Assembly: GCF_963676685.1 (NCBI RefSeq)
Contig: NC_092353.1
Coordinates: forward strand, 53,692,001 to 53,756,000
Length of the DNA: 64,000 nucleotides
Direction: 5' to 3'
Source: Mytilus edulis
Lineage: Eukaryota
The notes beneath the pieces are model-generated. The model was not told where the DNA came from. It did not search any database and saw nothing but the letters and a program-made list of their open reading frames with translations. A program made the translations under genes and the position numbers. Shown one piece after another: positions 3,198 through 54,950 of the stretch; within the stretch, counting starts at the first letter, position 1; every line of letters starts with the position of its first letter.

Positions 3198-3582
3198 TGT
3201 TACTAACTGGATGTTTCTGTTTTGGCCCCATCATAGATTCGAGTTTATTTGTATTGAACCAGAATCCTGAAGACAGCTTATCGAGAATCTAGAGACAAAT
3301 ATTAGAGAAAATATTAACTACTTACGATTCATTATAATTTATAGGTACACGTTTAGGTGAACTACGTTGGTATAAATAAACAACGAAATAACATTTTCAA
3401 CAAGGTTTATATTTGTAAGAATTAAACTAAAATTTGAAGAAAACGCGAAATAGAATTGAGATGTGGGATATATGGTAATGAGACAAGAACCCAACGTCGA
3501 CAAGATACACTATAAATACACCACCAGACATTGAACATGAATAAAACAAAATGGTGGGTCTATGTAAGTGAGACAACAATCC

Positions 3583-4690
3583 GTGGCATGATTGTCAATC
3601 AGAAGATGTGGTATGATTGTCAATCAGAAGATGTGGTATGATTGTCAATCAGAAGATGTGGCATGATTGTCAATCAGAAGATGTGGTATGATTGTCAATC
3701 AGAAGATGTGGCATGATTGTCAATCAGAAGATGTGGTATGATTGTCAATCAGAAGATGTGGTATGATTGTCACTTAGGAGACTTGGCTTGATTTTCAATA
3801 ATGAGATGTGGTACGATTTTCCATAATGAGATGTGGTATGATTGGCAATAAAGAGATGTCGTAATTGTAAATATAAATAAATAGTAAGATGTGATTTGAT
3901 TGTCAATAAGAAGATATGGCAGGATTGATAATGAGTATGTGTGGCTAGATTGATAGTTATAAGAGACCGTAAACCAAAGACAACATATAATGAAAAGAAT
4001 CAAATGAATATGAATATAAGACGTTGTATGATTGCCTTTAAAAAGATACATTCTATGGGTATAATTGATAGTTAGGAGAGGCAGTAACGATTGTCAAAAA
4101 GCTGATGTGGCTTTAATGTTATTAAGGAGATGTTGTCTATTAATCATTAGAGAGATGTAGTTTAAAGGTCAGTGAGAGATGTGACTTGATGTCAATAAGG
4201 AGATGTGGCTTGCAGTTTTATAAGGAGAAGTGGCTTGATTGTCAATCAGGAGATGTGGTTAAATTGTCAATAATGATATATGGCTTGAAGCTCAATGAGG
4301 AGATGTAGCGCCAAGGTCAATAGGGAGCTGTGGCTTGTTATTCGATAAGGAAATGTGGCTTGAAAGTGAATAAGGATATGTTGATTCATTATCATTGAGG
4401 AGCTATGGCTTGATTTTCAATAATGAGATATGGATTGTAGGTCAATACGGAGACGTGGTTTCATTATCATTTGAGAGATGTGACTTGACTGTCAATAACG
4501 AGATGTGGCTTGATTGGCAATAAGGAAATGTGACTTGTTTGTCAATAAAGACATGTGGTATGATTGTCAATAAAGCAAAGTGCTTAGATTTTCAAGACAT
4601 ACATGTAATTAGGAAAATGTGGTATGATTGTAAATAAAAAGACGTGGTTTAAGTGTAAATAAATAGACTTGGTTTGAGTGTAAATATTAT
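3583..4690 (+). repeat. 25 bp minisatellite (gtggtatgattgtcaatcagaagat)n, near-perfect 3583-3772 then degenerate
   Basis: Directly visible tandem units. Confidence 0.9.
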
Positions 4691-11666: not shown

Positions 11667-14249
11667 GTATGTTATTTTAGCAACATGTAATGTTATAGTA
11701 TATTCCACATTTAGTAATACAGCACATATGGTATGATTGAAAACACAAAAAATAACAACTCATGCACAAAGGTAAAGACAATTACAGATTATCACAAAGC
11801 CTTCAACAATGAACAAACCCATGTTGTATAGCATGCTATAAAAGACTCAGGTACGACACAATATGACACAATTTTTTCATACTACAACAATAATAGTAGA
11901 CACCAGCCAACAAAAACTGCTGTATAACAGGTCCTTTGAAAAAAATTACAACGTCGTGGTTATTAACAAGGTCATGGCAACAAACAAAACACAACAAAAA
12001 GACGAAGAAATCTACAAAACGTAAAATAGAAATCTATATCTTTTGGCAATTAAAATGTGACACCTTGTTTTATTTCATGTAATATTTGAATGAGTCGCAT
12101 GTCAAAAGACAAGGTGTTGTTGAAATGATTATGTTATCTAATCTCTCTAACCTTGACTTTAATAAACTTTATACAAAGTGAAATTCGAGGAGGTGACAAC
12201 ATAAACTTAATACAAGAGATAACCGATTTGTTTGATAACGAGAACAGAAGAATATTTTGAAATTCTCATAAATGTTGACTTTTGTCGTAAATATGTTGAT
12301 AACTGAGAGAGACTTTAAGGTTAAACTCGTTGATTTTTAAGATATCCATGTTTTCTTTTACTACTGAGTGAATTTACGAGAATAAACAGTAAAGAGATGT
12401 GTGTGTATAGTTTTATAAATACGAACGACTGAAAACCTCGCCACTTTAATCCTTCTTGCTGATTTGTTCAACCATCTCTCGATATATTTGTAAGCAGCAG
12501 ATACCATTTTGAAATCCGACAAAAAATCGCTGCATTCTTATTTTGAAGATTTTCGAAAAAATGTTAACTTTTGATCAATTTCATACAACTCATCTCGAAA
12601 TTTTGATAAAAATTCAAACAGCTCTATTTGAGCGATTATGTTGGTTGACACCGTGTGTGATATGGGATATTTTAATTAGATACGGTAACCTAGATAAATA
12701 GATTTATTTTTCGCGTTCAATGACGAAATTAAAATGTGGGTTGATATTAGCTTTGCAACCGTGATTCATATCGATATCAACCCTGTTAACATATACAGAT
12801 CATTGGCAATGTTCGTACTACCCATACAATTAACTCATTTACTACTAATTACATATTTAAAATGGTTTATATCACGTGCAATACGAAGGCACAGTCTAAC
12901 TATCCCGAGTCATTAGCCTGTAATTCGGTGGTGTGTCTGTTATACGTTTATTTTTATTGTTTGGTTTTTAATCGTGTTTGATTTTTTTGACACTATGACC
13001 TGAATTATCATTGATATTTTCCAATGGCATGCAGTATAAAGCGATTTGGCACCCTTTCATACGTCCACCGTCGATCCGTCCGTTTGTACGACTTGTCGGT
13101 AACTGCATCCTGTAAAGTACAATTAGCTTCAACAAAAATCACAAAAAAAGATACAAATGTTTCAAGTCATTAAAGATCTCCCGGTCCTTTAGAGAGGCCA
13201 CGCTGAATCAAACAGGAAATAAAACTCCCGGCATTCCCGATTGTAACATTTTTATTTTCAAGTGTTATAAACAAAAAAGTTACCAAATATATAAGTTTAT
13301 ATGTATGCTGGCGTTTGTTTTTATAGCAGATCATTGTTTCTGTTGTTCTGTTGTTTCCCTCTTATAGTTATGTGTTTCCCTCTGTTTTTGGTTTAGTGAA
13401 TTGCATTTGTTTTAGTTAAGTCGACTTATGACGATTAAACAGCGATACACTACTATTGCCTCTTTATAACACCACACTACTTGGCCTTTTTATCAAACTG
13501 ATTAAGTTATGTAGATCCAAACCAACAAGTAACACATCAACACACGACAACAACTCGTTAGTTTGATTGACTATGTTATATTTGTACATACATTAGACCG
13601 TTATTGTTTTCGTTTGTATTGTTTTACAGTTGTAATATCGGGGCCTTTTAAAGCTGAATATGCGGCATGGTCTTTATTCATGGTTAAAGGCTGTACGGGT
13701 ACTTTTGTTGCTTTTTCTATGTCATGTGGTCTCTTGTTGAGAGTTGTACTATACAACATCTTCTTTTTTATAGATATTAAAATGCGTACGTATGGCGCGC
13801 CGGTTTTGTATTGATATATTTGTACATGCTAAGTAGCATTCGCTATTATAGCGTTTATATATTTAAAAGTTATTAAGAACGCACATGTATATTTATAGGA
13901 TGCAGGCTTCATTGTAAGGGTGGTGCTCCGTGAATGAAAACTCTCCTGAAAGACTAATGAAAAAGAAGGACTGAAGTCGACGCTTTATTATGATCATGGT
14001 CACCAACACGAATTAGCTGACCAAAGCGATGTATCTTATAAAATCCGCTATGATCCATATTAGAATTAATATTGTGTATGCCAGAGGTGCGTTTTGTCCA
14101 CAACAGATCAACTAGTGACTATTGGATCAAAAAGAAAAACAAGGCAACAAAAAAAGTCAAAGAGCACGGAGGAGACGATTCCGAATGTATTTGTCTCAAT
14201 TAACCACCACCATATTGGCTTAATAAACTAGACTACACAGGCAAATTTT

Positions 14250-14755
14250 GCTCACGTGATTTTCACGTGAATCTCATTTCACGTGAATTTCACATAAATT
14301 TCACGTTAATTTCACGTGAATTTCACATGAATTTCACGTGAAGTGATTTTACGTGAAATTCACGTTAACTTTTTACGTGAATTTCACGTGAAGAGATTTC
14401 ACGTGAAATTCACATTAAATTTTCACGTGAATTTTACGTGAAATTATTTCACATGAATTTCACGTAAAAATTTCATGTGAATTTCACGTGAAAAAATATA
14501 AATGGTGTCTAAGTTATAAAAAATTAACTGAAAATCAAAAATTTTCACAACATCTCATACCTTGTATTATATGTATCATATGTTCCCTGGGAATCTATTT
14601 AATTTTAAAAATTCTAATTTCACGTGAAATTCACGTGAATATTTCACGTGAAATTCATGTGAAAATATTCATGTTATATTTACGTGAAAAATTTCACGTT
14701 AAATTTACGTGAACAATTTCAAATGAAATTAACATGAATCAAAACCCCTGTGAAA
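14250..14755. repeat. Left subterminal array of palindromic ttCACGTGaa units
   Basis: Directly visible, about 11 bp periodicity. Confidence 0.9.
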
Positions 14756-17071: not shown

Positions 17072-18340
17072 ATGTGGAGGTGCTCCTTTGTAAGGATGCT
17101 TATAAACGAAATAATTATTTATATGTTCCAAGAATTTGTATAGTATATATCAAAAGAATGGGGATACATTTTTTTAACATGGAGAAATGCTTTGACCATC
17201 AGCAAGATATCCTCCAATCTCTAGTCCGGATCCGGATTCGGATTTTTAAAAACGCTTGAAAGATACAGATTATGACGCGTTTTGAAGAGAAGGACGCAGC
17301 CGATTGTCAACAACAATAATACTTGTTTTAGCTAATTTAACAAGACAACTAATACCAAGGAGCTATGAATATTAATAAATACTCGAGGATATACTACAGG
17401 TAACTCAAACAAATGATTTAATAGTGCAGGAATAAACAGAAATCTGCAATGACTGAATGTTTTCATCTTCGAGTTTGGTACAGTGACTTACATCAAATTA
17501 TACATGTAGTGTCCCTTCGACATGATTCACGTTCGACCAAGCACCTGTTTGCCTATGATCGATTCGCCCTGATTTTTTTTTATATGTTGTCTACTTGCAT
17601 AATGTTTATTATTTGAACAGAGTATGGCAAAGAATGTTGAAAAATTCGGCGAATATGTGTATTGCTGCAAACAAAAAATTATTTTCCCTTTAATTTTGTT
17701 TAAGTACGTACTTTAATATCTTTATTGATATTTGTTTACTGTTACAATTCATGCAGTATTATAACAGAGACATATATAATAAATAAACTGTCTGTTTGTT
17801 GTGAATCCGGGTCCGTTCGCCCTGATTCACGTTTGCCCTGGTATCTGTTCGCCCTGATTCCTGTTCGCCCAGGGTCCATTCGCCCTGATTTTTTTATTTT
17901 TTTCTAATTGTTCTGATTTCATAGTTTTAAGTATTTGAACGAAATATGTTAAAGTTTGTTGAAAAATTGACAGAATATTTATCATGTTTATATTCCCGCA
18001 ATCAATTTATCATTTTCGCTTTGATTTACAGAGTAAAATACTGGAATACAATTTATTTCTCTTTATTGATTACTACGTATACTTTCAGAGTATAATACTA
18101 AATGAACATGTAAACATACATGTTTCATGATTTACAGTTCGTACATCATTGTTTTTATTAATTTCCAGCTATATATTTTATCAAAAACAAAACGTTTGAT
18201 TTTTATTAATAATCCATCAAAAGACTAGTATCACAATAATCAGTGATCCGAATTATTTTGTCATTGAACAATTTTAATGATCCTAAACAAGCCATACACT
18301 TAAATATTTCCCTGTTTCCATAAATTTCAAGAATATATAC

Positions 18341-18648
18341 TAAAGTGTTATTTGGCCTGTCTCGCTGAGCTCTATGGTTACCCGAGGGGTTGATACAAGC
18401 TATGCTTAGTGTAAGAGTGCCCTTACCTTCCTACAAGGTGTCAGTCCCAGCTAACCTCGTCTAGCCCCAGATATCAGGCGCATTGCCTTGCTCGTTCCGT
18501 GGTGAGAGAGCGATGTCATCGAGGAAGAGGCTGGAAGTACCCAACTGTTACGTCATGTCATGTGTCCCTTCGGATCCCTCGGTGATGTACCAGTACCCGT
18601 GTGACAGGTTGGGGAAACCCCCTAGAACTACGGGGCAATTACACTACA
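18341..18648 (-). repeat. 3' LTR (TGTAGT...CTTTA on minus strand)
   Basis: Direct repeat of 24542-24849. Confidence 0.95.
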
Positions 18649-18660
18649 CCCCCCTCCATC
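18649..18660 (-). promoter_or_regulatory. Polypurine tract
   Basis: Minus strand GATGGAGGGGGG immediately precedes the 3' LTR. Confidence 0.85.
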
Positions 18661-19662
18661 TTAAAAAGGAGGAACTACAGTTCCGACAAAAACGACTGTA
18701 TATCTTACTAAAACTCCCAAGGGGAAGACTGGCAACGTCTTTTACTAATTAAACCATGACACAGGGTATCCTAAGTATCCACCCCCCTTAATCCTGGATA
18801 AGGGGAAAATTGACAAAACTTAATATTTCCCAAGGAAAAAAAAAATAATTTAATTACCCATGTAAAAATAAACATATGAAAATCGAGCTCTGAACAGCTA
18901 TCTTATCTATGGAGTACCAAACTCCCAACAATTTACACACCAGAGTTGCCACAGGGTGCCAACCTCAACAGGTTCTTCAGGACAAATAACAGCCGAACTC
19001 CAGGTCGACCATAGCCATATGCTATTCCAACTTATACAGTCCTGGACATGGGTCTCATTACAAGACAATAAACTGCGTGCTCAACACGTCTAAAAACCCT
19101 GACTCTGTGTAATGTTCACATACATATACATGTATCAACTGTTCAGACCTTAACTGACAAAAATCATACTTCAAAATATAAAACTATCTCAATGTCTAAA
19201 TGACAAGTTCATTAATACCGCCCTGAATTTCCAAATGAAACTAACTAACATGTACATGTATATCTTTATACATAATTTACAACCGACTAAATACTATAGG
19301 TCTATAATCCCAAAACTGGGAAGGATGTACATGACCATAAATAATTTGACTCTTTGTCAAAAAAAAAAACCACATATATAGTGCCTCTATATAAGGATGC
19401 ATTTAACTATTTTACTACTTTAATAGTTAGTATCACCAAAATTTACATAATAACAGGGTCATGACACCACTCTTATATATCTGTTTCAACTTTTCAACAT
19501 ATTTGTACACTTTACATGTGAGAGTGTGAAGCAAAAAAAAAAAAAAAAAAAAAACTAATAAAAATCACAGAAAATACAAAACTGGTTCACACTCAACATA
19601 ATTTCAAAGGCGTTAAATCCCAAACTGGGAAAACTGTTCTTTTTTTTTTTTTTACAATTTTA

Positions 19663-22600
19663 TTACTGAAGGCGCCTCACTTCAATGTGAGGACGGTGAC
19701 CTAACAGGTCAAAACATACACTATCTTCTAAGACTGTTCCCTCACAGATCAGTGAAACATTCCCACTTTCAGGGAATCTATCTTTTACTACCTTGTACAG
19801 TTCCGTCACAGAACTTACTCTTGCCATACACTGCAAACCTTCATACTGTATAACCACAAGTGTTGGAACTTGAGGGCTCTGACTCAACTTGAGATGTGAA
19901 GAAGAATGCTCTACCTGGGATTCAGCTAGTTGTGAAATTTGGCGTCCTAGGAGAAGTGCGGTTTCATTCTTTGGAGTATGGTGTGCATTTGTTTCATTGT
20001 CAGCAATATTGGACTGCAATTTTCTCTTTTTGCTAGATGTTTCAGTGTTCAAACTTTCACTCTCATGGTGAATTTCTTCTATTTCGTCCATTACTATGGT
20101 ACGTCCTTCTTGTTCAGACTGAACATTGTCTTCCTCCCCTTCTTTTTGAGGGATTGCTGACTCATCTTGAGCTTTGTTAACAAACACTGGCCAGAAACTG
20201 GCATTCATCTCAGCAAGTTCCTCAGGTTCAGGAGGATTTCTAGGATTGTAGCTAAATCCTTCGGCTACCATATCTTGTTGTTCAGGGCTTAAAAAGTTTA
20301 GAACTGAAGTAAGGACTCTCCAGTTGAGTAAACAGGCAGGGCTGTTTATCGGTCGCAAGCTATATCTGAAATAGTCTGTCCATCCCATCTCTTTACAAAC
20401 TGTACGATGGACTTGAATTTGTATCCCTGTAACATGTGTAGAACGGGGCACAAAAGACTTCTCATTGAGGAAATTCACCAAGTCTTTGGCAGTCACTGTT
20501 TCCTGCCTGGTTAACCATTTTGCTAGGAGCATAACCACATAAGCTCTATGTTGGTGAAATCTTCTGTCCTCCATCAGTCTTTTGGAATGATAGGTCTGAA
20601 AGATATCAGAAAGATGTTCTTCAAAACAATGTCGTTTTACGTCTCTTCTATCGACCACTACTTGGCAGTTCTTTACAGGACATTTACGGTCTGTTCGACT
20701 TTGAACACAAGTCCTCTCCCTTTTTCCACTTTTGGGACAAGTATAAAACCCAAGGCTCTCTCTTGATTCTACCTTGTCAACCCTACTGTCTCTACATTGA
20801 TCAGGCTCAGATCCCTGTGTAGATGTTGAGGCCCTCATGGCTAGGTTAGAATCTACTTGAGGAACGACTGTTTCAAGATGAAATTCAGCATTTTGCCTGC
20901 TGGCTGGGAACCTTTGTGTTGACCCTTCTGTTCTGGGTTTCTTATCTGACGATGAATCTGAAGTGTTCTTTCCATGAACAACGTTGACATTAGGTTCATG
21001 AGTTATATTTTCATCTTCTAGTAAAAGTGACATGTTCCTATTCTGTACAGTTAATGTTAGTTCTCTTATATTCATGACAACTCTATTATGCATGATAAAG
21101 TCACATCCCAGTATCATATCACATGAAACTGGAGCTACATACAGTTGTTGATTGATCTGTATATCTCCAATCTTAAACTTTATAGGACTAGAAAGCCTGC
21201 ATGGCATTGTCATGTTGGTACCAGCACCATGCATAGTAGTCTCCTTGATAACATAGGGCTTAGGCTCCAAAGTGTCAAAAATTGTGTCCTTAAGAATAGT
21301 TACTTCAGAACCTGAATCAACTAGAGCGAGTACTTTCTTTTCCGCAATATATACTTCAACTCTAAAGAGTTTGGCTGATCCTAGTGATCTAACTGTACTG
21401 ATTCCAGATACTACTCCTTCAGATTCATGAGAATCGTCTTTGTTATTCTCATCAAAAGATACTTGTTGAGATGTTGGCTCTTTCTGTACTGACTGTCTTT
21501 CTGTTTTTTGTACATAAAGTTCTGGACAGTCTTTGATATAATGACCTTGCTGGTGACAATTAAAGCATTCATTATTATAATAACCCTGTCTGGTATATCT
21601 CCTGTCCCCAGAGTTATTCCCTCGCCCTCGACCATAATTACCAGTAGGCGAATAATCAGAATACCTGTTGTCTTGATTAGGTGACCTAGAATTAGGACTG
21701 GTTCCATGTTTGACTGATTGTTCCTGAACCAAACTGGTTACTGTTGACATCATTTTCTTTATATGTTCTTCTATGCGAGAGAGACGATTATCCATACTGG
21801 ACTTGATGCTACCTACACCAAGAACTACTGGTGAGTTAACTGACTTCTCTGAAAGAGACTCCTCCTTCTTGCTAGTTTTCTGAATGGCACTGACTGCCTT
21901 CCTAGTGTGCTGACACCATCTAATCATATCCAAGGCTGCATCCATGGACTTTGGTTTAGAGATACAAGCTTCTGTTCCAGCAACAGTATCATTACAACCC
22001 TGACAAAACCTCATGATTGCCTGTTCAGTCATTAGTTGTTCACTGTACCTGCTATAGGCTCTAGTGGCGAGAGTCAACACTCTTTCCGACCACTCCTCCA
22101 AGGTCTCCTTTTCTCCTTGGGCACTTGTCTGGAACTGAACCTGTGAGGTTTCTGGCAATTCTTGATGACCAAATCTCTTATTCATATTGGATACAATATC
22201 AGAAAAACTTGCTGTTTTGTTATTTTCTAGGATTAAGGTGTAATACTCACTGGCTGCATCATCTAGGCACCAGCAGAGCTGTTCCCTTTTTTGTTTATCT
22301 GTCCACTCGGCCATTTTAGCATAACTAGAAAACTTGGTATAAAAGGCTTTCCAGTTGCCCTTCCCATTATAGCGGAGCGTTTTCGGGATCGAGGACAGAA
22401 ATTGTCTTTTCTCTATTTTCTCCTTTTGTCTACTTTCCTGACTGCTTTCAGAACTTTGACCATCTGTGTCAGATTCTGATCGGGAGTCACTAGACATTTT
22501 AGACCTTCTAGGACTTGAACGACTACGGTGTAATGGAAAACTCCTTACACTTCTTAAAGGTGAGAAATCACGCTGTTGATTCTTATGAGGTCTGTTGTAC

Positions 22601-24069
22601 TCAGGTTCTGACCTTCGCTTTGTTCTGGACTGGCGGTATGCTGAAACATTTGACATGTCAGAATCACCTATATATTTATGTCTAGGATCACTTCTTTCTT
22701 GTCTCCCATAGTAATCACTATTATATTCATTCTGTCTTGCTGAAGGTTGGTTGTAATGCAGCTGAGGTGCTCCTGATGGGGGAGGTTGCTGCTGTGTGCC
22801 AGGCATAGGTAACTGAGGCACGTGTAATAGTTGTGACTGACCCAAACTTGGGTACGTTAAACCAGGTATGAATTGATGGTTGTAAGGCATTAAATTTGTT
22901 GGTGCTTGTGGCGGTGGTTCACCTCTAGGAGGTTGATACATAGAAGTTGGGTGACCAATCATCTTATGTTGTTGAACTTCTGGTACAGAACTTGGTGGTT
23001 GAAACCTTGGTTCTGGATAATTTGGTTTTTGATGAACAACTTCACTAACCTGTTGTTGTAGCCGCTGTTGAGGTATAGAAACCGGCGCTGCAGCTAGATG
23101 TTGTTGTTGCACAGGCTGTGCATAGTTAATGACCCCTTGTTGAAGCTGGTCTAGCCGTTGTTGTAGGCATTGTACTTTATGTTGCATTTGCACTCTTTGT
23201 TGACTCTTGTTGACTTCCAGTCGGTGAAGACTATTGAAGCCATGTTGATATTGGTCGACATAGTGGTGCTCATGTTGTACACTTGGTGAAAAGTGAACAT
23301 GGTCAGATGTAGGTGTATGTAAGAACCTTGGTTGTTGGTCATAATCAGGGCTTTTATATCTTGGCGGAGTCTGTTGCACCTCTTGTTGATGGTTGCAATC
23401 TTCCTGTTGATCTACTATAGGGTTTTGAATATGCCAGTTCTGGCTAAGCGGTATGAACATTCTGTCATATGGGACATCACCGTCCTGTTGACTGTCTGGT
23501 TGAGGGTGTGCAACCATGTTGATCCTTGGTGGTTGAGTATGATACTCATTGCTACAAACACTCAGGTCTGAGTTCAAACTCTCTGAAGAAAGGCTCTCCT
23601 GTGATGGTTCACAATGTAACTGCTCTAACATAGTTAAATGTTCAGAACGACTTTGTATTTGTTCCAGGCGATGTTTGTCCCATTCAAGACTGGAGCAGGC
23701 TCCATCCTCTGAGCAAGATGATTCTACCTCATCTTGAGTACCTGTATCCTTAAAACTTGAACAAGGATACTCCTCTGGCTCCATATCAACAATCACATGA
23801 TCAGGCTTTGGAGGCAACATACTCACAGAACAGGCTCCGTCACGGACAGCTTCCCTGAGCTCAGCTCTTGGTCTTCGTGAAAAATCAATTATACCCAGAA
23901 TACCTTCTGTCACTCTCAAGTGTGGAATTTGGAATAAAACATCTCTATCAATGTGGATACCTTTTGCCCTAATATCCATGATCCTTCCTGCTATGGCCTC
24001 CCCTATGCCAGGTATGCAGGTAAGTATTACCTTAGGACAGGTGTTAATATTGATCATGTACCCCTGCAT
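19663..24069 (-). CDS. gag-pro: 1468 aa polyprotein: ComEA-like helix-hairpin-helix, Q/P- and RS-rich linker, Gag capsid-like, CCHC knuckle, retropepsin, C2H2-like finger plus unknown domain, C-terminal ubiquitin-like segment
   Basis: ININTC..ILTCIPGIGEAIAGRIMDIR (HhH); YNGKGNWKAFYTKF...W (Gag); CFNCHQQGHYIKDC; ALVDSGSEVTIL...MILGCDF; CPVKNC-x11-HCFEEH; VSLICEGTVLED. No YxDD, RNase H or DDE region. Confidence 0.9.
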   Translation of the reverse strand: MQGYMININTCPKVILTCIPGIGEAIAGRIMDIRAKGIHIDRDVLFQIPHLRVTEGILGIIDFSRRPRAELREAVRDGACSVSMLPPKPDHVIVDMEPEEYPCSSFKDTGTQDEVESSCSEDGACSSLEWDKHRLEQIQSRSEHLTMLEQLHCEPSQESLSSESLNSDLSVCSNEYHTQPPRINMVAHPQPDSQQDGDVPYDRMFIPLSQNWHIQNPIVDQQEDCNHQQEVQQTPPRYKSPDYDQQPRFLHTPTSDHVHFSPSVQHEHHYVDQYQHGFNSLHRLEVNKSQQRVQMQHKVQCLQQRLDQLQQGVINYAQPVQQQHLAAAPVSIPQQRLQQQVSEVVHQKPNYPEPRFQPPSSVPEVQQHKMIGHPTSMYQPPRGEPPPQAPTNLMPYNHQFIPGLTYPSLGQSQLLHVPQLPMPGTQQQPPPSGAPQLHYNQPSARQNEYNSDYYGRQERSDPRHKYIGDSDMSNVSAYRQSRTKRRSEPEYNRPHKNQQRDFSPLRSVRSFPLHRSRSSPRRSKMSSDSRSESDTDGQSSESSQESRQKEKIEKRQFLSSIPKTLRYNGKGNWKAFYTKFSSYAKMAEWTDKQKREQLCWCLDDAASEYYTLILENNKTASFSDIVSNMNKRFGHQELPETSQVQFQTSAQGEKETLEEWSERVLTLATRAYSRYSEQLMTEQAIMRFCQGCNDTVAGTEACISKPKSMDAALDMIRWCQHTRKAVSAIQKTSKKEESLSEKSVNSPVVLGVGSIKSSMDNRLSRIEEHIKKMMSTVTSLVQEQSVKHGTSPNSRSPNQDNRYSDYSPTGNYGRGRGNNSGDRRYTRQGYYNNECFNCHQQGHYIKDCPELYVQKTERQSVQKEPTSQQVSFDENNKDDSHESEGVVSGISTVRSLGSAKLFRVEVYIAEKKVLALVDSGSEVTILKDTIFDTLEPKPYVIKETTMHGAGTNMTMPCRLSSPIKFKIGDIQINQQLYVAPVSCDMILGCDFIMHNRVVMNIRELTLTVQNRNMSLLLEDENITHEPNVNVVHGKNTSDSSSDKKPRTEGSTQRFPASRQNAEFHLETVVPQVDSNLAMRASTSTQGSEPDQCRDSRVDKVESRESLGFYTCPKSGKRERTCVQSRTDRKCPVKNCQVVVDRRDVKRHCFEEHLSDIFQTYHSKRLMEDRRFHQHRAYVVMLLAKWLTRQETVTAKDLVNFLNEKSFVPRSTHVTGIQIQVHRTVCKEMGWTDYFRYSLRPINSPACLLNWRVLTSVLNFLSPEQQDMVAEGFSYNPRNPPEPEELAEMNASFWPVFVNKAQDESAIPQKEGEEDNVQSEQEGRTIVMDEIEEIHHESESLNTETSSKKRKLQSNIADNETNAHHTPKNETALLLGRQISQLAESQVEHSSSHLKLSQSPQVPTLVVIQYEGLQCMARVSSVTELYKVVKDRFPESGNVSLICEGTVLEDSVCFDLLGHRPHIEVRRLQ

Positions 24070-24522
24070 AGTGACTTTGTACTTTACAAAGTTATAAAAA
24101 TTTATTTGACTTTATTCAATATAATTCACAAAATTATATATATACACGGATCAACAATAATTTTTTATTCAATAAAAACTCAAGTCAAAAATAAATATAC
24201 ACGGAACACTATAAAAGCAAACTGCTCTTGTGTTTGTTTACATCCGTTTGTTTACATCTGTAAACAGAATCCAAGATGGCGACCAAATCTCGCCGCTGAC
24301 GTGACCTCGCTACCACTAAAGCAAACTTTTCAAAAAGTTTTTCCTCAGCCCAAAAACTATGCAAAAACGATGTATTTCTACTGACTTTCAACTAGAAAGT
24401 ATACCATCGGACCTGGTTTGTCTCCCTTAGACAAAAAACTTATTTTTAGATTTGACTGAAGGCACTCAAAATTTTGGAGTGATGCCAAAATGGCGTCCAA
24501 TCCCCTACAGGACCAAAATTTA

Positions 24523-24540
24523 AACCACCCGCAACTACCA
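24523..24540 (-). promoter_or_regulatory. Putative primer binding site
   Basis: Minus strand TGGTAGTTGCGGGTGGTT begins 1 nt after the 5' LTR. Cognate tRNA not assigned. Confidence 0.65.
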
Positions 24541-24541
24541 G

Positions 24542-24849
24542 TAAAGTGTTATTTGGCCTGTCTCGCTGAGCTCTATGGTTACCCGAGGGGTTGATACAAG
24601 CTATGCTTAGTGTAAGAGTGCCCTTACCTTCCTACAAGGTGTCAGTCCCAGCTAACCTCGTCTAGCCCCAGATATCAGGCGCATTGCCTTGCTCGTTCCG
24701 TGGTGAGAGAGCGATGTCATCGAGGAAGAGGCTGGAAGTACCCAACTGTTACGTCATGTCATGTGTCCCTTCGGATCCCTCGGTGATGTACCAGTACCCG
24801 TGTGACAGGTTGGGGAAACCCCCTAGAACTACGGGGCAATTACACTACA
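24542..24849 (-). repeat. 5' LTR
   Basis: Direct repeat of 18341-18648. Confidence 0.95.
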
Positions 24850-25654
24850 ATACCATAGAAATATCTGAATAAGTTTATTCAACTTAAATGCCCTGAATAT
24901 TAATATTTTTTAAGTAGGGCGAACGATCTCAGGGCGAACTTACCCAGGGCGAACATGTTATTGGGGCGAACAGTCCCGATACCGTTTGTTGTCTCTTTGA
25001 CATCATTCCACATTTCTATTCTCAATTTTATCAAAATACTTTTCATGTTTTACAATTCGTATACATTGTATGTACAAAAAATGAACATCATTGTTTTTAC
25101 TCATTTTTGACTACTTTATCAAAACAAAACGTTATTTACGGTCTCACTAATTAGCGACAAGAAGAATATTTGTTTATGATTCAAACCGATAATACATTGT
25201 ACATGTTGTACTACATGTATCTTATCTATGATTAACTTAAAGTCATATATATAGATAACAAAACAGTTGCAGTTTAATATTACATACATTTGTACATTTG
25301 TACATGACACAGGACAATCACTGACAAGTTTCAAGACTTGCTAGCCAGCTAGCAGTAACTGAAAGCCAGCACAAATACCTAATCTGTCGTACACTCTTAT
25401 TTTGCGGGTGGCTGTACCTCACTTTTTACATTAGATACCCTTTAACACCATATCATAAGGAAAACAATTGTTGATTTCTCTTAATCAAACATTTGGATAA
25501 CAATTTATAGAAAACTACCACAAGGGCCAGGGGATTTCCAGTTAGGGGAGGGAAATGTTCCCATACATTTTTGTAAGTCTTGCACTGGCGAAATGGTATG
25601 AATCAATAATCATGATATATACATTTTTGTAACTACAACAAGACGATACAATAT

Positions 25655-34269: not shown

Positions 34270-34560
34270 CTGAATTCACTTTAATTTCATTTTTTTTAAA
34301 AGAAGCTCGATTCACGTTTATTTCACGTGAAAAGTTCACGTGAGTTTCACGTGAAGGCTCAATTCACGTGAATTTCACATGTAAAATTTCACGTGAATTT
34401 CACGTTAATCTCAATTCACGTGAATTTCACATCAGATTCACGGGAAATTCACGAGAAAATTTTCACGTGAGTTTCATGTATAAGCTCGTTTGAGGTGAAT
34501 CTCACGTGAAAAATTTCACGTGAAATTCACGTGAATTTCACGTGATATTTACGTGAACAA
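34270..34560. repeat. Right subterminal array of ttCACGTGaa units
   Basis: Directly visible. Confidence 0.9.
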
Positions 34561-34826
34561 AATTTGCCTGTGTAATATTTAAATTTATCGATGAAGTTCT
34601 TTTTTTCTGATTTAACATTTAAAAACGTGTTGATTTGCATGAAAGATATGCATGAATAGCATTAGACGCCTTTTCCATAGACGTAAAAAGTCTCCCTTCA
34701 GAGTTAATTTTTTCACCTAAATTTAAAACTACTTGATAGATTTATACAATTTAAACTTTGGTGAAATAAAGTACCAGTGACATGGACCATAATAACATTA
34801 TCTGTAGTTTAAACCTTTATTTTCAG

Positions 34827-44000: not shown

Positions 44001-44097
44001 AGAATGTAAATGGGGAATGTGTCAAAGAGACAACAACCCGACCATAGAAAAAAACACAACAGTATTCATTCAAGTACATGCAATCTATTTTAGGATT

Positions 44098-45771
44098 ATG
44101 GCCACCAATTGGGGTATTTGTGGTATTTGTGAAAACCTTCAGATTACCAAACCTTCAGTAGTATGGTGTTCCGAATGTGACGAAGGACTATGTGAGGATT
44201 GTAAGAAACATCACGCAGTTTCCAAGGCATCAAAAAACCATGAAACCGTTTCTATCGCCAAATACAAAAACTTACCCACCGAAGTCCTGCAAATATCTCA
44301 GACCTGCAAACTTCATAATGAGAAATACGAGCTGTTTTGCGCAAAACACGATTGTCCTTGCTGTAAGAAATGTGTGAAATCTCACAACGATTGTAAAGGT
44401 TTAACTGACATAAATGAACTCATAAAAAACGTAAAAACTTCAAACGCATTTAATGAAATCGAACAAAACCTGCAGGAAGTCGTCGAGAATATAAAACGAC
44501 TAAGCACAAACAGGAATGAAAATTTAAAATCTATAGAAAACAAGAAAAGAGAAATTGAAGCAGCAATAAAACAAACCAGGATAAACGTTAATCATCACCT
44601 TGATAAACTTCAGGATGACTTGATTAAAGAACTTATGACAGTTGAACAAAGAGAAAAAAGCAAAATAGAAAAATTGTTAACTTCTCTACAAAAGAAGGAA
44701 AAAGAAATCGCTGAAGTACAAGAAAACTTTGCCAGTATTAAAAATCATGCGTCAGAACTTCAAACATTTTTAACAATGAAAGATATCGAAAAAGATATTA
44801 TAGGCGAAGAAAAATTTATCAAATCGATTGCCACAAGTGACTCCACAAATCAAGTCACTATTTCATGTCAGATTAACAAGTATTTACAGCAAATAACAGC
44901 CAGCATGCAGAAGTTTGGAGAAATTAATGTCAGTTCTGATCCATGTGATTTTACCATTCAGAAACGGAAGGACAGACAAGCCCAGATTATGGTCACTCTT
45001 CCAACCAGAGATATCTATAACCTGACTCTGACATTACAGAAACGTATCAAGCCAAAGTTGTCAAATATCTGTGGTTGTTCATTGCTTCCAGGTGATCGGA
45101 TGGTATTCTCCTCTTATATAGACGGTAAATTAACAGTACTAAAGACTGACGGATCAAAAGATTTTGAGATAAAGAACATTGGTCCAACTTGTGATGTGGT
45201 ATTTATTGGTGATGATTCTATTGCTGTAACTTCCGGTGAATCAAATCAGATTAATATAATCGACTTAAAGAAGAAATCAAAGACGAAATCAATAAAAGTG
45301 GATTCATATAATGGTGGAGTAGCATACAAAGATGGATATTTAATATATTGTGCCAAAGAGAAAGGAATACAGATGATCAGTCTGAATGACGAAACCATTA
45401 CCAATGTTAACAATACCAAACTTTCAGGTATTGCGTACGTTACAACATTCGGTGACAAATTGTTCTACACAGATTGCAATGACAGCGTAACCTGCTGTGA
45501 TTACCATGGTCACATACTGTGGACGTTCTGTGATAAAAGTGTTATCCACTCTCCACAAGGTGTCTCTGTAGATAATGATGGTAACGTGTATGTAGTTGGA
45601 TGGAAAACTAGCAACGTGGTCGTTTTCTCTCCTGATGGACAACACTACAGACAACTCTTATCAAGTGAAGATAGACTTAGCTTCCCATGGGCTCTTCATT
45701 ATGACACGTCTACCAATGAATTGTTAGTTACAAATCCATCCAATGAAGCCTTTCTGTATGATGTTAATTAA
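44098..45771 (+). CDS. RING-less TRIM-like B-box/coiled-coil/beta-propeller protein (copy B, 557 aa)
   Basis: Colinear paralog of 117-1790. The start is set at MATNW, preceded by the same acceptor context (ttttag-gatt-ATG). Confidence 0.9.
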   Translation: MATNWGICGICENLQITKPSVVWCSECDEGLCEDCKKHHAVSKASKNHETVSIAKYKNLPTEVLQISQTCKLHNEKYELFCAKHDCPCCKKCVKSHNDCKGLTDINELIKNVKTSNAFNEIEQNLQEVVENIKRLSTNRNENLKSIENKKREIEAAIKQTRINVNHHLDKLQDDLIKELMTVEQREKSKIEKLLTSLQKKEKEIAEVQENFASIKNHASELQTFLTMKDIEKDIIGEEKFIKSIATSDSTNQVTISCQINKYLQQITASMQKFGEINVSSDPCDFTIQKRKDRQAQIMVTLPTRDIYNLTLTLQKRIKPKLSNICGCSLLPGDRMVFSSYIDGKLTVLKTDGSKDFEIKNIGPTCDVVFIGDDSIAVTSGESNQINIIDLKKKSKTKSIKVDSYNGGVAYKDGYLIYCAKEKGIQMISLNDETITNVNNTKLSGIAYVTTFGDKLFYTDCNDSVTCCDYHGHILWTFCDKSVIHSPQGVSVDNDGNVYVVGWKTSNVVVFSPDGQHYRQLLSSEDRLSFPWALHYDTSTNELLVTNPSNEAFLYDVN

Positions 45772-46449: not shown

Positions 46450-49400
46450 TGATTATCAATTAGGATATTCGGTCATGATTATCAATACGGAGCTTTTGTC
46501 ATGATTATCAATAAGGAGATTCGGACATGATAGTCAATAAGGAGATTCGGGATGATTATCAATATGGAGATTCGGACATGATTGTCAATAAGGAGATTTA
46601 GACATGATTGTCAAAAAGGCGATTCGGTCACGACTGTCAATAAGGAGATTCGGAATGATAATCAATAATGACATTTAGACATAATTGTCAATAAGGAGAT
46701 TTCGACATGATTGTCAATAAGAAGATTCGGTCCCGACTATCAATAACGAGATTCGGTCCCAATTGTCCATAAGGAGATTCGGGATGATTATCAATAAGGA
46801 TATTTGGACATGATAGTCAATAAGGAGATTCGGTCCCAACTGTCAATAAGGAGATTCTGGATAATTATCAATAAGGACATTTGGACATGATTGCCAATAA
46901 TGAGGTCGGTAATGATTGTTAATAATTAAATTCGGTCATGATTGTCAATAAAGATATTCGGACATGATTGTCAATAAGGAGATTTGGTCATGTTTGTCAA
47001 TAGGGAAATTCGGTCCTGATTGTCAATATGGAAGATAAAGAAAATGTGGTATTACGTATATGAATATGTTAGACAGTGTGAAAATAAGAAAAAAAATCAA
47101 TACGCATTAAATACGTTGAATGATTATCAATAAGGAGATTCGGACATGATTGTTGATAACACATGGATAAGGAAATTTGGTCATGATTATTAATAAGGAG
47201 ATTTGGACATCATTGTGAATACTGAGGTCGGTCATGATTGTCAACTACGAAATTCGGTCAAGATTTACAATAAGGAAATTCGGTCATGATTGACAATAAG
47301 GAAATTCGGTCATGATTTTCAATAAAGATATTCAGTCCTGGTTATCAATAAGGATATTTGGACATTATTGTCAATAAGCAGATTAGGTCATGATTGTCAA
47401 TAAGGAAATTCGGTCCGGATTGTCAATAAGGAGATTCGGACATTATTGTCAATCAGGAGATTCAGTCCCGATTGTCAATAAGGAGATTCGGTCATGATTT
47501 TCAATAAAGAGATTCAGTCCTGGTTATCAATAAGGATATTTGGACATTATTGTCAATAAGGAGATTTGGACATGATTGTCAATAAGAAGATTTGGACATG
47601 ATTGTCAATAAGGAGATTTGGACATGATTGTCAATAAGGAGGTCGGTCATGATTGTTAATAAGGAAATTCGGTCATGATTTTCAATAAAGAGAGTCGGTC
47701 ATGGTTACCAATAAGGAGATTTTGACATGATTGTCACTAAGGAGATTATGTCATGATTGCCCAGAGGGAAATTTGGTCATGATTGTCAATAAGGAGATTC
47801 GGGATGATTATCTATAAGGAGATGTGGACATGGTGGTCAATAAAGAGGTCGGTCATGAATGTTAATCAGGAAATTCGGTCATAATTTTCAGTAAAGAGAT
47901 TCGGTCATGGTTATCAATAAGGAGATTTACGCAAGATTGTCTATAAGGAGATTAGGTCCTGATTGTCAATATGAAAATTCGGTCTTGAGTGTCAAAAAGG
48001 AGATTTTGACATGATTGTCAATAGGGAGAGTCGGTCACGATTGTCAATAAGGAGATTCGGTCCCGATTGTCAATAATGAGATTCAGAATGATTATCATTA
48101 AGGACATTTGGACATGATTGTCAATAATGAGATTCGGTTCCGATTGTCTATTAGGAGATTAGGATATCATTGTCAATAAGGAAGATAAGAAAGATGATGG
48201 TATTACGTATATAAATAGCTTGGGCAATGAAATAAGAAAAATAATCCTAACGCATTTAATACGTTGTATGATTATCAATCAGGAGATTCGGACATTTTTG
48301 TTAATAAGGAAATTCGGTCATGCTTATCAAAAAGGAGATTTAGGCATGATTGTCAATAAGGAGGTCGGACATTATTGTCAATAAGGAAATTTGGTAATGA
48401 TTTTCAATAAGGAGATTCGGTCGTGATTGTCAATAAGGAAATTCGGTCATTCTTATAAATAAGAAGATTTAGTCAGTTTTGTCAATAAGGAGATCATGTC
48501 ATGAATGTCAATAAGGAGATTCGGTCCTGATTTCCAGTAAGGAACTTCGGTCATGATTATCAATAATGAGATTTGGACATGTTTGTCAATAAGACGACGT
48601 ACTATGAGTATCAAAGAGAAGAGATGGTATGATTGTCAATAGGAAGATGTTGTATGATTGCCTATTAGAAAATGTTGTACGATTGTCAATAATGAGATGT
48701 GATATGATTGCCTATAAGAAAAGAGGGACGAAAGATACCAAAGGGACAGTCAAACTCATAAATCTAAAACAAACTGACAACGCCATGGCTAAAAATGAAA
48801 AAAAAACCCAGAAAAACAAAAGAACACATGACACAACATAGAAAACTAAAGAATAAACAACACGAACCCCACCAAAAACTAGGGGTGATCTCAGGTGCTC
48901 CGGAAGGGTAAGCAGATCCTGTTCCACATGTGGCACCCGTCGTGTTGCTTATGTGATTACAAATCCGGTAAATAGTCTAATTCGGTAGGTCACATTTATG
49001 ATTTTCGATAAGAAATGTAGTATGATGGTCAATAAGAAGATTGCTTTCATTTTCAATAATGAGATGCAGAATGAGTTTCAATTAGGTGACGTGATATGTA
49101 TTGTTGTATGATTGCTAATACGGCAATGTCATAAAAATGTCAATTTGTTAACGTGGTACGATTTTTCAATAAGAAAATGAGTTATGATTGTCAATAATGA
49201 GTATTGTATGATTGAAAATATCTAAATAGCAAGATGTGGTTTGATTGTGGGTAGAAGATATAGCAAAATATTTAATGACTAGATGTGGCTTAATGAGAAT
49301 ATGATATAACGAATTATTATGAATAAAAAGCGCTGTATGATTGTCATTAAGAAAATATAGGTGCGATTGATATCAAAGAGAGGCAATCACGATGGTCAAT

Positions 49401-51190: not shown

Positions 51191-51917
51191 GAGATTAATT
51201 AAGTTGCTATGTTGGCTGTGGCATATGCATGATAAGTCTTATTATAATATTCAAATTCTAGCATGACGTGCTTCGTTTGCTTTGTGAACAAACCCATGCT
51301 CTAAATCCAACAAAATGTGTTTAAACATGCGTATATTTCCTTGCGCTTCTACAGAAGAATGAGTTTTATCAAATTATCATGCACTTAATGTATTTCCTTA
51401 ATTTTAAAACACTTTCAAACTCTTAAATGGTGCATATGGTGTTACATATTCATTTATTATGACTGTAATGTGTTACATTCTGAAAATGACAGATTTTGAC
51501 CTAGATACCACAACCGTTCATGCTGGATGTTCAAACTCCTCCCTCTGAAAAATCATAGTGCCAGCCGTTTGCTTCTTTACAAACAAAAAAGGGAGGTTCA
51601 TGAGAGAGCATATACAAACGCCCTACTTATCAGACAAAGAAATTACCTTAATTGTCCTATTCAGAATCGAAATAATTGATGCAAGCTATACTTTATTGTA
51701 GTTTTAACATGCACGTATAGGCATTATATTCGTGTTATGTAAGCCCTCACTATCGCTCAGGAATAGTGTTTTCTGGTGTGGCTGCCCGTCCGTTCGCCCG
51801 TTCAAAGTAAGGTTTAATATTCGGTTTAATGTAGTTAACTACTAAGTTTGTTGGCTTTCAATTGTTTATCCATGTGATTTTTCGATTCACAAATGGAAGG
51901 ACAGACAAGCCCAGATT

Positions 51918-52700
51918 ATGGTCACTCTTCCAACCAGAGATATCGATAACCTGACTCTGACATTACAGAAACGTATCAATACAAAGTTGTCAGATGTCTC
52001 TGGTTTTTCATTGCTTCCTGGTGAGCGGATGGTATTCTCCTCTAAAACGGACAATACATTTACAGTACTAAAGTCTGACGGGTCAAAAGATTTTGAGATA
52101 AAGAACATTGGTCGAACGTTTGATGTGGTATTTAGTGGTGATGATTATATTGCTGTAACTTCCGGCAATTCAAATCAGATTGATATAATCGACTTAAAGA
52201 AAAAATCAAAGACGAAATCAATAAAAGTTGATTCATTTAATGGTGGAGTAGCATACAAAGATGGATATTTAATATATTGTGCCAGAGAGAAAGGAATACA
52301 GATGATTAGTCTGAATGACGAAACAATTACCAATGTTAACAATACCGAACTTTCAGGTGCTGTTTGCGTTACAACATTCGGTGACCAATTGTTCTACACA
52401 AATTTCAATGACAGCGTAACCTGCTGTGATTACCATGGTCACATACTGTTGACGTTCTGTGATAAAAGTCTTCTGCTGTGTCCGCTAGGTATCTCTGTAG
52501 ACAATGATGGTAACGTGTATGTAGTGGGGAATCGAACTCAAAATGTGGTCGTTATCTCTCCTGATGGACAGCACTCCAGACAACTCATAACAAGTCAAGA
52601 GGGACTAGGAGACCCATGGGCTCTGCATTATGACACATCTACCAATGCATTGTTAGTTGCTGATGTATATCATGACGCATTTTTGTATAATGTTAAATGA
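51918..52700 (+). CDS. 5'-truncated paralog (copy D): open beta-propeller-only ORF, 260 aa; may be a pseudogene
   Basis: Homology starts ~51868 (atccatgtgattt); the ORF from the linker Met to the stop is uninterrupted. Confidence 0.65.
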   Translation: MVTLPTRDIDNLTLTLQKRINTKLSDVSGFSLLPGERMVFSSKTDNTFTVLKSDGSKDFEIKNIGRTFDVVFSGDDYIAVTSGNSNQIDIIDLKKKSKTKSIKVDSFNGGVAYKDGYLIYCAREKGIQMISLNDETITNVNNTELSGAVCVTTFGDQLFYTNFNDSVTCCDYHGHILLTFCDKSLLLCPLGISVDNDGNVYVVGNRTQNVVVISPDGQHSRQLITSQEGLGDPWALHYDTSTNALLVADVYHDAFLYNVK

Positions 52701-54149: not shown

Positions 54150-54950
54150 GTTTGATTATCACTAAGGAAGGTCAGTCATGATTGTCAATAAGACGACGGG
54201 CTATATATGAATGTCAATTCGGAAACGTGGCATTCTTTTTATGTAAAAAGGTAAAAGTATGATAATCAATAATGGAATGTAGTATGATGGTAAAAAAAGA
54301 AGTTGTAAGATTTTAGATATATATAGATAGATGATTGATTGTCAACAATGAGGTATGGCAGGATTATTAATTAGTAGAGTAGATTCCTTATCATTTATAT
54401 AAGGAGATGTTGCTTGCTTGTCAATTAGGATATTTGGTTTCATTATCCTTAACATGATTAAGGAAATGTAGCTTGAAGGTCAAGGTGAATATTTGGTTTC
54501 ATCATCATTTGTGAGGTGTGTTTCATTATTATTTGTGAGATGCGGTTTCATTATCATTTGTGAGATGTAGTTAAATTGTCGATACAAAGATGTTGCGTGA
54601 TTGTCATTGAGAAGATTTAGCTGGATTGTCAATATGGAGATGTAGCTGAATTGTCAATAAGGAGATGTGACTTGGAGAACACTAGTGAGATGTGGCTTGA
54701 CTGTCATTTAGGATCTGTGGTTTGATTGTCAGTAATTAAAGTGACGTGCTATGATTATCAAGACATAAATCATAAAATGTGGTTTGATTGTCAATGCTGA
54801 AATGTGGTTTGATTGTCAATAATAAGATGTGGTATGGTTGTCTATAAGGAGATGTGGTATGGTTGTCTATAAGGAGATGTGGTATGGTTGTCAATAAAAA
54901 TATGTGGTATAATTGTTTATAAGGAGATGTTTTATGATTGTAAATTAAGC
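54150..54950 (+). repeat. Third array of the 25 bp minisatellite
   Basis: aaggagatgtggtatggttgtctat units, clearest at 54770-54945. Confidence 0.8.

Follow-up and report, generated by a model that had tools for sequence, protein, structure and literature searches.

What does a retrotransposon carry behind its protease, and why would it keep such a load after losing the enzymes that copy it? This question is raised by a 64,000-nucleotide stretch of the genome of the mussel Mytilus edulis (contig NC_092353.1, positions 53,692,001 to 53,756,000; hereafter the window), in which a long terminal repeat (LTR) element on the minus strand encodes, in one open reading frame (ORF), a Gag, a protease and a cargo that makes up the last ~345 codons. 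A reading made from the letters alone (hereafter the sequence-only reading) described the cargo as a C2H2-like finger, a Trp-rich domain, an acidic linker with KKRK and a ubiquitin-like segment without a di-Gly end, which the element's own protease could release as a nuclear accessory or anti-silencing factor. Our analysis identifies the cargo as the third ORF (ORF3) of a Gypsy lineage represented by two complete elements, L001 and L002, fused here to the protease. It further points to a CIDE-N domain taken from a host gene as the source of the C-terminal part. For the anatomy, ORF3 origin, partner domains and fold together with this CIDE-N capture, we estimate a probability of about 0.7. The parts of the ORF are as follows (proteins are referred to by P numbers; pLDDT is the predicted local distance difference test).

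19663-24111, minus strand: single ORF with helix-hairpin-helix Gag, CCHC knuckle, protease and cargo; 1482 codons stop to stop, first Met at 24069
23941-24057, minus strand: helix-hairpin-helix at the Gag N-terminus (PF12836, E 2e-4, below cut-off), also in the Gag of L001 and L002
21994-22323, minus strand: Gag capsid region (PF14893 and PF03732 above cut-off)
21520-21570, minus strand: CCHC zinc knuckle (PF00098, E 0.002)
21088-21360, minus strand: retropepsin aspartic protease with DSG motif (PF13650 and PF00077 above cut-off)
20752-21006, minus strand: junction, comprising the end of the protease and then a low-complexity stretch; pol continues here in relatives
20191-20751, minus strand: domain A, the N-terminal module of ORF3, with a CCHH zinc site (20614-20682) and a helical body with a P-x-N-S-P-A...W-R motif
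19876-20190, minus strand: acidic disordered linker with KKRK (20020-20031; ORF residues 1361-1364), pLDDT mostly <55
19666-19875, minus strand: C-terminal beta-grasp domain, probably a divergent CIDE-N, no di-Gly

The cargo is the ORF3 of a Gypsy lineage

The motifs quoted in the sequence-only reading are all present where it placed them, in one minus-strand ORF: CPVKNC at ORF residues 1144-1149, RHCFEEH at 1160-1166, INSPACLLNWRVL at 1255-1267 and LVVIQYEG...IEVRR at 1418-1480. A search with the last 365 amino acids of the ORF (P0002) returned 136 homologues at E<=0.001, almost all of them by way of residues ~20-170 (domain A), and this pattern of motifs is therefore not due to chance; the closest named proteins, from Mytilus, are 68-83% identical across the cargo. 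When all 136 were sorted with profiles built from the hits, 43 combined domain A with TatD, 15 combined it with a C-terminal domain of the type found here, and none had both, the remainder comprising 73 with domain A only, 1 with the C-terminal domain only and 4 with neither. The domain A-only proteins are mostly short (68 of 73 end within 150 amino acids), and these short ones are probably fragments. A Pfam scan of 77 of the 136 found TatD in 38, above cut-off in 37, and the seven positions that we take to form the TatD metal site are intact in 20 of 31 TatD domains, 7 truncated domains having been left out.

The DNA of L001 and L002 contains gag (helix-hairpin-helix and capsid), an overlapping pol (protease, reverse transcriptase, RNase H, integrase and a PHD finger) and then an ORF3 for domain A-TatD, all flanked by terminal repeats. 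Because the M. edulis element matches their Gag capsid, their protease and their ORF3, its cargo is the ORF3 of this lineage, joined in frame to the protease, and the helix-hairpin-helix at the start of Gag is a marker of the lineage. ORF3 thus has two forms, one closing with a TatD nuclease and the other, found in one subclade, with a small beta-grasp domain. In the Mytilus gene models P0153, P0155 and P0156 there are pre-integrase pol pieces between the protease and the domain A+beta-grasp pair; to the extent that such predicted models can be trusted, they suggest that longer elements carry a beta-grasp-type ORF3 behind pol.

The fusion itself is a trait of a family and not damage to one copy, as the junction recurs in other Mytilus proteins. 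The stretch 20752-21006 is present in 9 other proteins at E<=1e-7, including M. galloprovincialis and M. coruscus models (matches include P0003, P0004, P0005, P0008, P0010, P0121 and P0144), and the likeness of this family to pol-bearing Mytilus relatives stops right after the protease. Beyond ORF residue ~1013, the Pfam scan gave nothing except a weak match to DUF4729; this and a match to Spt5-CTD were rejected as weak or repeat-driven.

It might be supposed that the cargo is a fragment of a host gene captured once by the element, or that the ORF is a domesticated host gene, since domain A also occurs in apparent host genes such as the PDCD6-like locus of P0057 and the Ostrea gene of P0023. 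Against this stand the identical LTRs and target-site duplication (TSD) described below, which indicate a recent insertion, the position of domain A at the start of ORF3 in two complete elements, and the recurrence of the domain A+beta-grasp pair at 30-48% identity in other element families. We regard this explanation as largely refuted and very improbable.

Several observations concern the wider distribution of domain A. Apparent host genes with the domain are P0023, P0036, P0037, P0043 and P0057, some with tandem pairs; the P0023 cluster (Ostrea edulis LOC130052597) is a gene with two copies of domain A and a degenerate TatD, P0036 also has a degenerate TatD, and in the P0057 cluster domain A lies inside long isoforms of a Mytilus PDCD6-like EF-hand locus. 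Given its occurrence in these genes, domain A appears to have been exchanged with the host in at least one direction. L002 (1-11691), an LTR element that is complete and of eukaryotic type, comes from a contig assigned to a Sedimenticola metagenome-assembled genome, where the annotation calls its ORF3 a bacterial 'TatD family hydrolase'; it is probably host DNA in a symbiont bin. The PHD finger that ends pol after integrase in L001 (3925-8466) and L002 (3938-8215) scores above cut-off for PF00628 and is a possible chromatin-targeting module.

A young element without its own polymerase

The cargo segment lies in a 6,509-bp LTR element (18341-24849) with two 308-bp LTRs at its ends, bounded by the following features.

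24542-24849, minus strand: 5' LTR, 308 bp, TG...TA ends, 100% identical to the 3' LTR
18341-18648, minus strand: 3' LTR, 308 bp
24850-24853 and 18337-18340: 4-bp TSD, the same 4 bases beside both element ends
24522-24540, minus strand: primer-binding-site-like stretch, starting TGG, one base past the 5' LTR
18649-18662, minus strand: polypurine tract, directly against the 3' LTR

Paired LTRs, a short TSD, a TGG-starting primer-binding-like site (presumably resembling the initiator-Met tRNA), a polypurine tract and, by Pfam, a Gag with CCHC knuckle and a retropepsin are all features of the Gypsy/Metaviridae type; the LTRs end in TG...TA rather than TG...CA. The Pfam scan of the element shows Gag, CCHC and protease only, with no reverse transcriptase, RNase H or integrase, and when the pol proteins of L001 and L002 were compared with the whole window the protease was the sole match, so these three enzymes are missing. 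The pol order of protease, reverse transcriptase, RNase H and integrase is found in L001 and L002 and not in this element, which is therefore a non-autonomous derivative, such derivatives being common among LTR elements. From the 100% identity of its LTRs, we infer that the insertion is recent. We thus have a mussel LTR element of Gypsy type (Metaviridae-like) that is both young and non-autonomous. Among the 24 sequencing runs listed, 20 contain the stretch or part of it and 18 contain at least half its words; four of these runs are RNA by guess, and two RNA runs contain a small share.

The capsid may have a history of its own. The capsid region at 21862-22311 (ORF residues 601-750) is 88-92% identical to the M. 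coruscus model P0143, whose family runs on into pol-like sequence; the protease of that family (P0147, P0149) is ~47-56% identical to ours and its domain A 40-51%. In the P0145 family, identity is 52-66% for the capsid and 48-56% for the protease. As capsid identity to P0143 is far above that of protease or domain A, an exchange of capsids by recombination is suggested, of the kind to be expected when a non-autonomous element has a partner family. On either side of the LTR element lie short, GTTCGCCC-rich inverted arms (17809-17888 and 24929-24955; 27 nt, 85%), which suggest that it landed within a small non-autonomous DNA element.

Domain A, a predicted zinc/helical unit

The finger of the sequence-only reading holds as regards its ligands and departs from a classical C2H2 finger in its spacing. 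In an alignment of 107 homologous domains, the two cysteines and two histidines are near-invariant (C 90/91, C 90/94, H 95/96, H 97/100), as is the P-x-N-S-P-A...W-R motif. Canonical C2H2 fingers, stand-alone or in tandem, have the spacing CX2-4C-X12-HX3-5H, whereas ours is CX4C-X11-HX4H, which is shorter; the middle spacer is X9 in 72 of the 136 homologues, and 50 of the 136 have no match to the pattern. Folded alone, domain A is predicted with high confidence (pLDDT 95.5, predicted template modelling score 0.90) as a 190-amino-acid unit containing the single zinc site. Because it models as one rigid unit that includes that site, the zinc is probably structural rather than part of a free DNA-reading finger. 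The description of the middle domain as Trp-rich was overstated, there being 4 W in 171 amino acids.

A fold search with domain A alone among 48,161 chains gave a best Z of 2.7 and none at Z>=5, the weak partial matches including a UBZ finger (Z 2.2) and ZFP568 (Z 2.0), and the best Foldseek match had E 1.1. These searches, made with a predicted model, show neither a new fold nor a difference from known folds, and the zinc/helical adaptor may have a fold not yet solved. An env-like ORF3 would be expected to have a signal peptide or transmembrane helix; no long hydrophobic run was seen in 20-residue windows over the last 440 amino acids, no dedicated predictor being used. The search for the cargo locus in JGI metagenomes yielded 0 relatives among 34 pattern matches, and a homologue search restricted to proteins of 1013-2890 amino acids returned 2, both known already.

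The C-terminal domain: CIDE-N or ubiquitin family

The claim that the last ~65 amino acids follow the beta-grasp pattern is borne out by prediction. AlphaFold2, given 48 sequences, models P0002 as two confident domains joined by a disordered linker, and residues 300-363 form a strand-strand-helix-strand-short helix-strand arrangement with pLDDT 91-95. Beta-grasp domains lead the VIA-align matches, which cover residues 295-365, with a tie for the top Z between a SUMO1 fusion (Z 9.8, rmsd 1.9, 68 aligned) and the CIDE domain of Drep4 (Z 9.8, rmsd 1.8, 68 aligned), and Drep3, FSP27, CIDE-A and ICAD among the further matches. The model therefore superposes on solved beta-grasp domains, and the region is conserved among copies (see below). 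The lack of a di-Gly end also proved general: the protein ends RRLQ and none of 19 family members has such a terminus, so the domain is not a conjugatable (type I) modifier.

With the superfamily settled, the evidence for its family comes from relatives. Among the 13 proteins scanned that bear the domain, 5 match PF02017 (CIDE-N), P0041 above the curated cut-off at E 4.4e-6 and the others at 2e-4 to 0.23. An 18-sequence family profile had 11 matches in the PDB at E<=10, of which 9 are CIDE-N chains (best E 4.2e-5), and when the most CIDE-like members were removed Drep3 stayed on top, weakly (E 0.067; E 0.94). In hhalign, the group of 13 that includes our domain aligned with the trio of CIDE-like sequences at a probability of 90% and a score of 34.9, the best of 60 shuffles reaching 20.1. 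A tree was also built from domain A alone; it has 62 rows, omits 3 that were short and 8 ids that were duplicates or nearly so, and has P0041 labelled by hand. All 19 bearers of the beta-grasp domain fall on one side of a branch with support 93/93, a degree of clustering reached in 0 of 500 label shuffles, and as the tree is drawn the first rows to branch off are the three most CIDE-like. A single origin of the bearers is likely.

The chief competitor accepts the same element history and takes the last domain to be a generic type II ubiquitin-like domain (UBL) whose docking partners would be the proteasome, p97 cofactors or ubiquitin-binding proteins; it might, for instance, regulate how Gag or a host restriction factor is turned over. 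Structure does give this some ground, as the best Foldseek matches are ubiquitin variants, the ubiquilin UBL, SUMO and ISG15 (E 1.5e-3 onward), SUMO1 shares the top Z, and feature neighbours in the ESM Atlas are a mix of several beta-grasp families, all with scores under 0.9 and hence leads only. Searches by sequence tell otherwise: three family profiles, searched at E<=10, matched no ubiquitin chain, no ubiquitin-family Pfam match was found in 29 + 10 proteins scanned, including the 13 bearers, while CIDE-N recurs, and the di-Gly is missing in all 19 members. We therefore consider a generic UBL improbable. A search of a viral structure library gave no match at E<=0.001, its rows being ubiquitin-like with a granulovirus CIDE-N protein at rank 37, and a homodimer prediction for the C-terminal domain, in which the alignment was unused, scored 0.00 and is not evidence either way.

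Several points weigh against a CIDE-N origin. Taken alone, the C-terminal domain of our element matches no Pfam family at E<=1 and no PDB sequence at E<=10, and in hhalign its close family alone aligns with the CIDE-like trio at a probability of 1.6%; for these reasons its link to CIDE-N is transitive, running only through relatives. A further 10 proteins gave neither a CIDE-N match at E<=1 nor a ubiquitin-family match. The Foldseek matches shown for the domain are ubiquitin-like proteins, and the predicted structure ties CIDE with SUMO and ubiquitin and so picks no family. The stretch LICEGTVLED is also like ubiquitin, and our domain is acidic, by eye, at 3 of 7 positions of the aligned Drep3 acidic motif. 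In addition, the domain A tree was rooted at its midpoint and the branch in question falls short of the starred threshold, so that a TatD-to-CIDE direction of exchange is not shown by the tree, and the autonomous element with a CIDE-like ORF3 is known from gene models only, with none complete as DNA.

On balance, the sequence evidence leans, via relatives only, towards CIDE-N of the CAD/ICAD/Drep kind over ubiquitin. As regards the earlier ubiquitin-like call, the beta-grasp superfamily stands, and for the family sequence favours CIDE-N although structure ties. Since the domain itself scores no PF02017 match, we file it as CIDE-N-like and not as a member of PF02017. That it is a CIDE-N domain captured from a host CAD, ICAD or CIDE gene, and since diverged, seems to us probable, with good though incomplete confidence.

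Conservation of the cargo among copies

Conservation bears on whether the cargo does anything at all. Of the 7 close Mytilus copies that match domain A over a substantial length, 5 are 86-94% identical to it and the remaining two 76% and 83%. Identity is 81-86% for the C-terminal domain (3 copies) and 74-88% for the protease, and it is 64-80% for the linker where 60 or more residues align. The folded domains are thus better conserved than the linker between them, which suggests that selection acted on the cargo after the fusion, a constraint that is gauged by protein identity of predicted gene models and not by dN/dS. Within the linker, 6 of 7 close copies have KKRK, a candidate signal for import into the nucleus, and 0 of the 7 distant relatives do.

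Another explanation treats the cargo as a passenger. It could be argued that after the loss of pol the ORF3 remnant was kept only for its open frame, for translation, RNA stability or packaging, and that its domains are idle in this family; the annotated copies P0004, P0005, P0007 and P0009 indeed look truncated or frameshifted within the cargo, and the basic motif kept by most relatives is lost here. Among 13 aligned members, strand 2 has two basic residues in 9, one in 2 and none in 2, including our element. Rotifer ORF3s likewise have no clear departure from neutrality, according to Rodriguez et al. (PMC5408684). This explanation sits poorly with the superior conservation of both folded domains over the linker, with a domain A at least as conserved as the protease in most copies, with four intact zinc ligands and with the retention of KKRK. 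We consider an idle cargo decidedly improbable.

A possible role for the cargo

If the cargo is active, a route for it can be proposed. It would be made at Gag levels, in Gag's own frame, and would enter particles with Gag, the copying enzymes being supplied in trans; the element's protease could then cut it free, and KKRK could carry it to the nucleus. The protease on which the sequence-only reading relied for release does look intact upstream of the cargo, by its DSG motif and Pfam matches. We give this sequence of synthesis, packaging, release and nuclear import an even chance. For an anti-silencing role, which was also proposed, nothing was found in support.

What the cargo would do at its destination is more tentative. 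CIDE domains are described as pairing through the acidic face of one and the basic face of another, the acidic face of Drep1 and Drep3 binding the basic face of Drep2 and Drep4 (PMC5730196), and Drep4 is given as the fly DFF40 orthologue (PMC8891305). Betabaculovirus CIDE-N proteins have been proposed to play a decoy-like role, binding host DFF proteins and protecting viral DNA (PMC5245865). By analogy, domain A might serve as an adaptor and the CIDE-like domain might bind host CIDE domains, capping or decoying the apoptotic nuclease CAD/DFF40, so that element cDNA would be protected or host-cell death delayed. A capping decoy is considered because the acidic face seems to be partly retained in this family, while the basic residues that most relatives have at the start of strand 2 are missing. 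These steps are speculative, and we hold them to be possible and on balance doubtful. TatD enzymes are described as 3'-5' exonucleases linked to apoptosis and repair (PMC10085689 and PMC4176340), and for that reason both types of ORF3 may influence what becomes of DNA inside the host cell.

In its fullest form, the proposal would be that a mussel-centred Gypsy subclade swapped TatD for a captured CIDE-N behind the adaptor, and that a non-autonomous family then wired this module to Gag-protease, by which it would be delivered in every particle as a CAD decoy or recruiter. As a whole, this account is unlikely.

Other features of the window

Three paralogous, intronless-looking ORFs (93-1790, 44002-45771 and 51846-52700) are 80-90% alike in DNA, and B-box and NHL/beta-propeller matches mark 93-1790 and 44002-45771 as TRIM-like genes without a RING. 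Tandem arrays of a 25-26-bp repeat lie at 3483-4656, 46450-48726 and 54370-55030, and separate arrays of an 11-bp near-palindromic unit at 14241-14718 and 34361-34574.

Relation to known systems and implications

The nearest known systems are L001 and L002 themselves, which share with the mussel element a helix-hairpin-helix Gag, a homologous capsid and protease and the same N-terminal domain of ORF3. They differ in that the mussel element is without reverse transcriptase, RNase H, integrase and PHD finger, has Gag and protease in one frame and has its ORF3 fused to them, with the beta-grasp domain occupying TatD's place. Non-env accessory ORF3s are also known in the Gypsy-like Juno and Vesta elements of rotifers, where they are free-standing enzymes (DEDDy-exonuclease or GDSL; PMC5408684), whereas the mussel cargo appears to be a non-enzymatic interaction module fused to Gag-protease. 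The CIDE-N domains of CAD/DFF40, ICAD/DFF45, CIDE-A/B/C and Drep1-4 (PF02017) are beta-grasp domains of ~70-75 amino acids and the best sequence-profile matches; unlike them, the mussel domain is C-terminal, lies in a retroelement polyprotein and is very divergent, with the acidic motif partly kept and the basic strand-2 motif lost. A parasite-encoded CIDE-N has a parallel in betabaculoviruses (the MyunGV#8 ORF38 group; PMC5245865), although there the domain forms a small protein by itself, encoded by a large DNA virus and clearly matched by Pfam, whereas the mussel domain is divergent and is joined, within an LTR element, to a zinc/helical module. Ubiquitin, SUMO and type II UBLs have the same fold and equal structural scores, and the mussel domain has neither a di-Gly nor a sequence-profile match to them.

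Searches of titles and the beginnings of abstracts found no literature on TatD or CIDE-N in LTR retrotransposons, and TatD has 0 occurrences in PMC6238403 and PMC12440569; Repbase, subscription papers and supplements lay outside the search and may already record such ORFs. As far as these searches reach, the CIDE-like subclade and the Gag-protease-ORF3 fusion are new, while non-env ORF3 cargo and non-autonomous LTR derivatives were known already.

What most accessory genes of LTR retrotransposons do is not known, and here one adaptor domain is paired exclusively with TatD or a CIDE-like domain, both families tied to apoptotic DNA breakdown, which makes the role of ORF3 testable. Domain A, a family of more than 130 members that has no name, is modelled with confidence and is thus a good structural target; many of its proteins are catalogued as 'hypothetical' or 'TatD family' proteins of the host or even of bacteria, so that gene-family counts may be distorted. 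That the cargo has been kept under apparent constraint after the loss of reverse transcriptase and integrase suggests that it matters to the spread of the element. If the proposed role is correct, this would be an LTR element that tampers directly with the DNA fragmentation of cell death.

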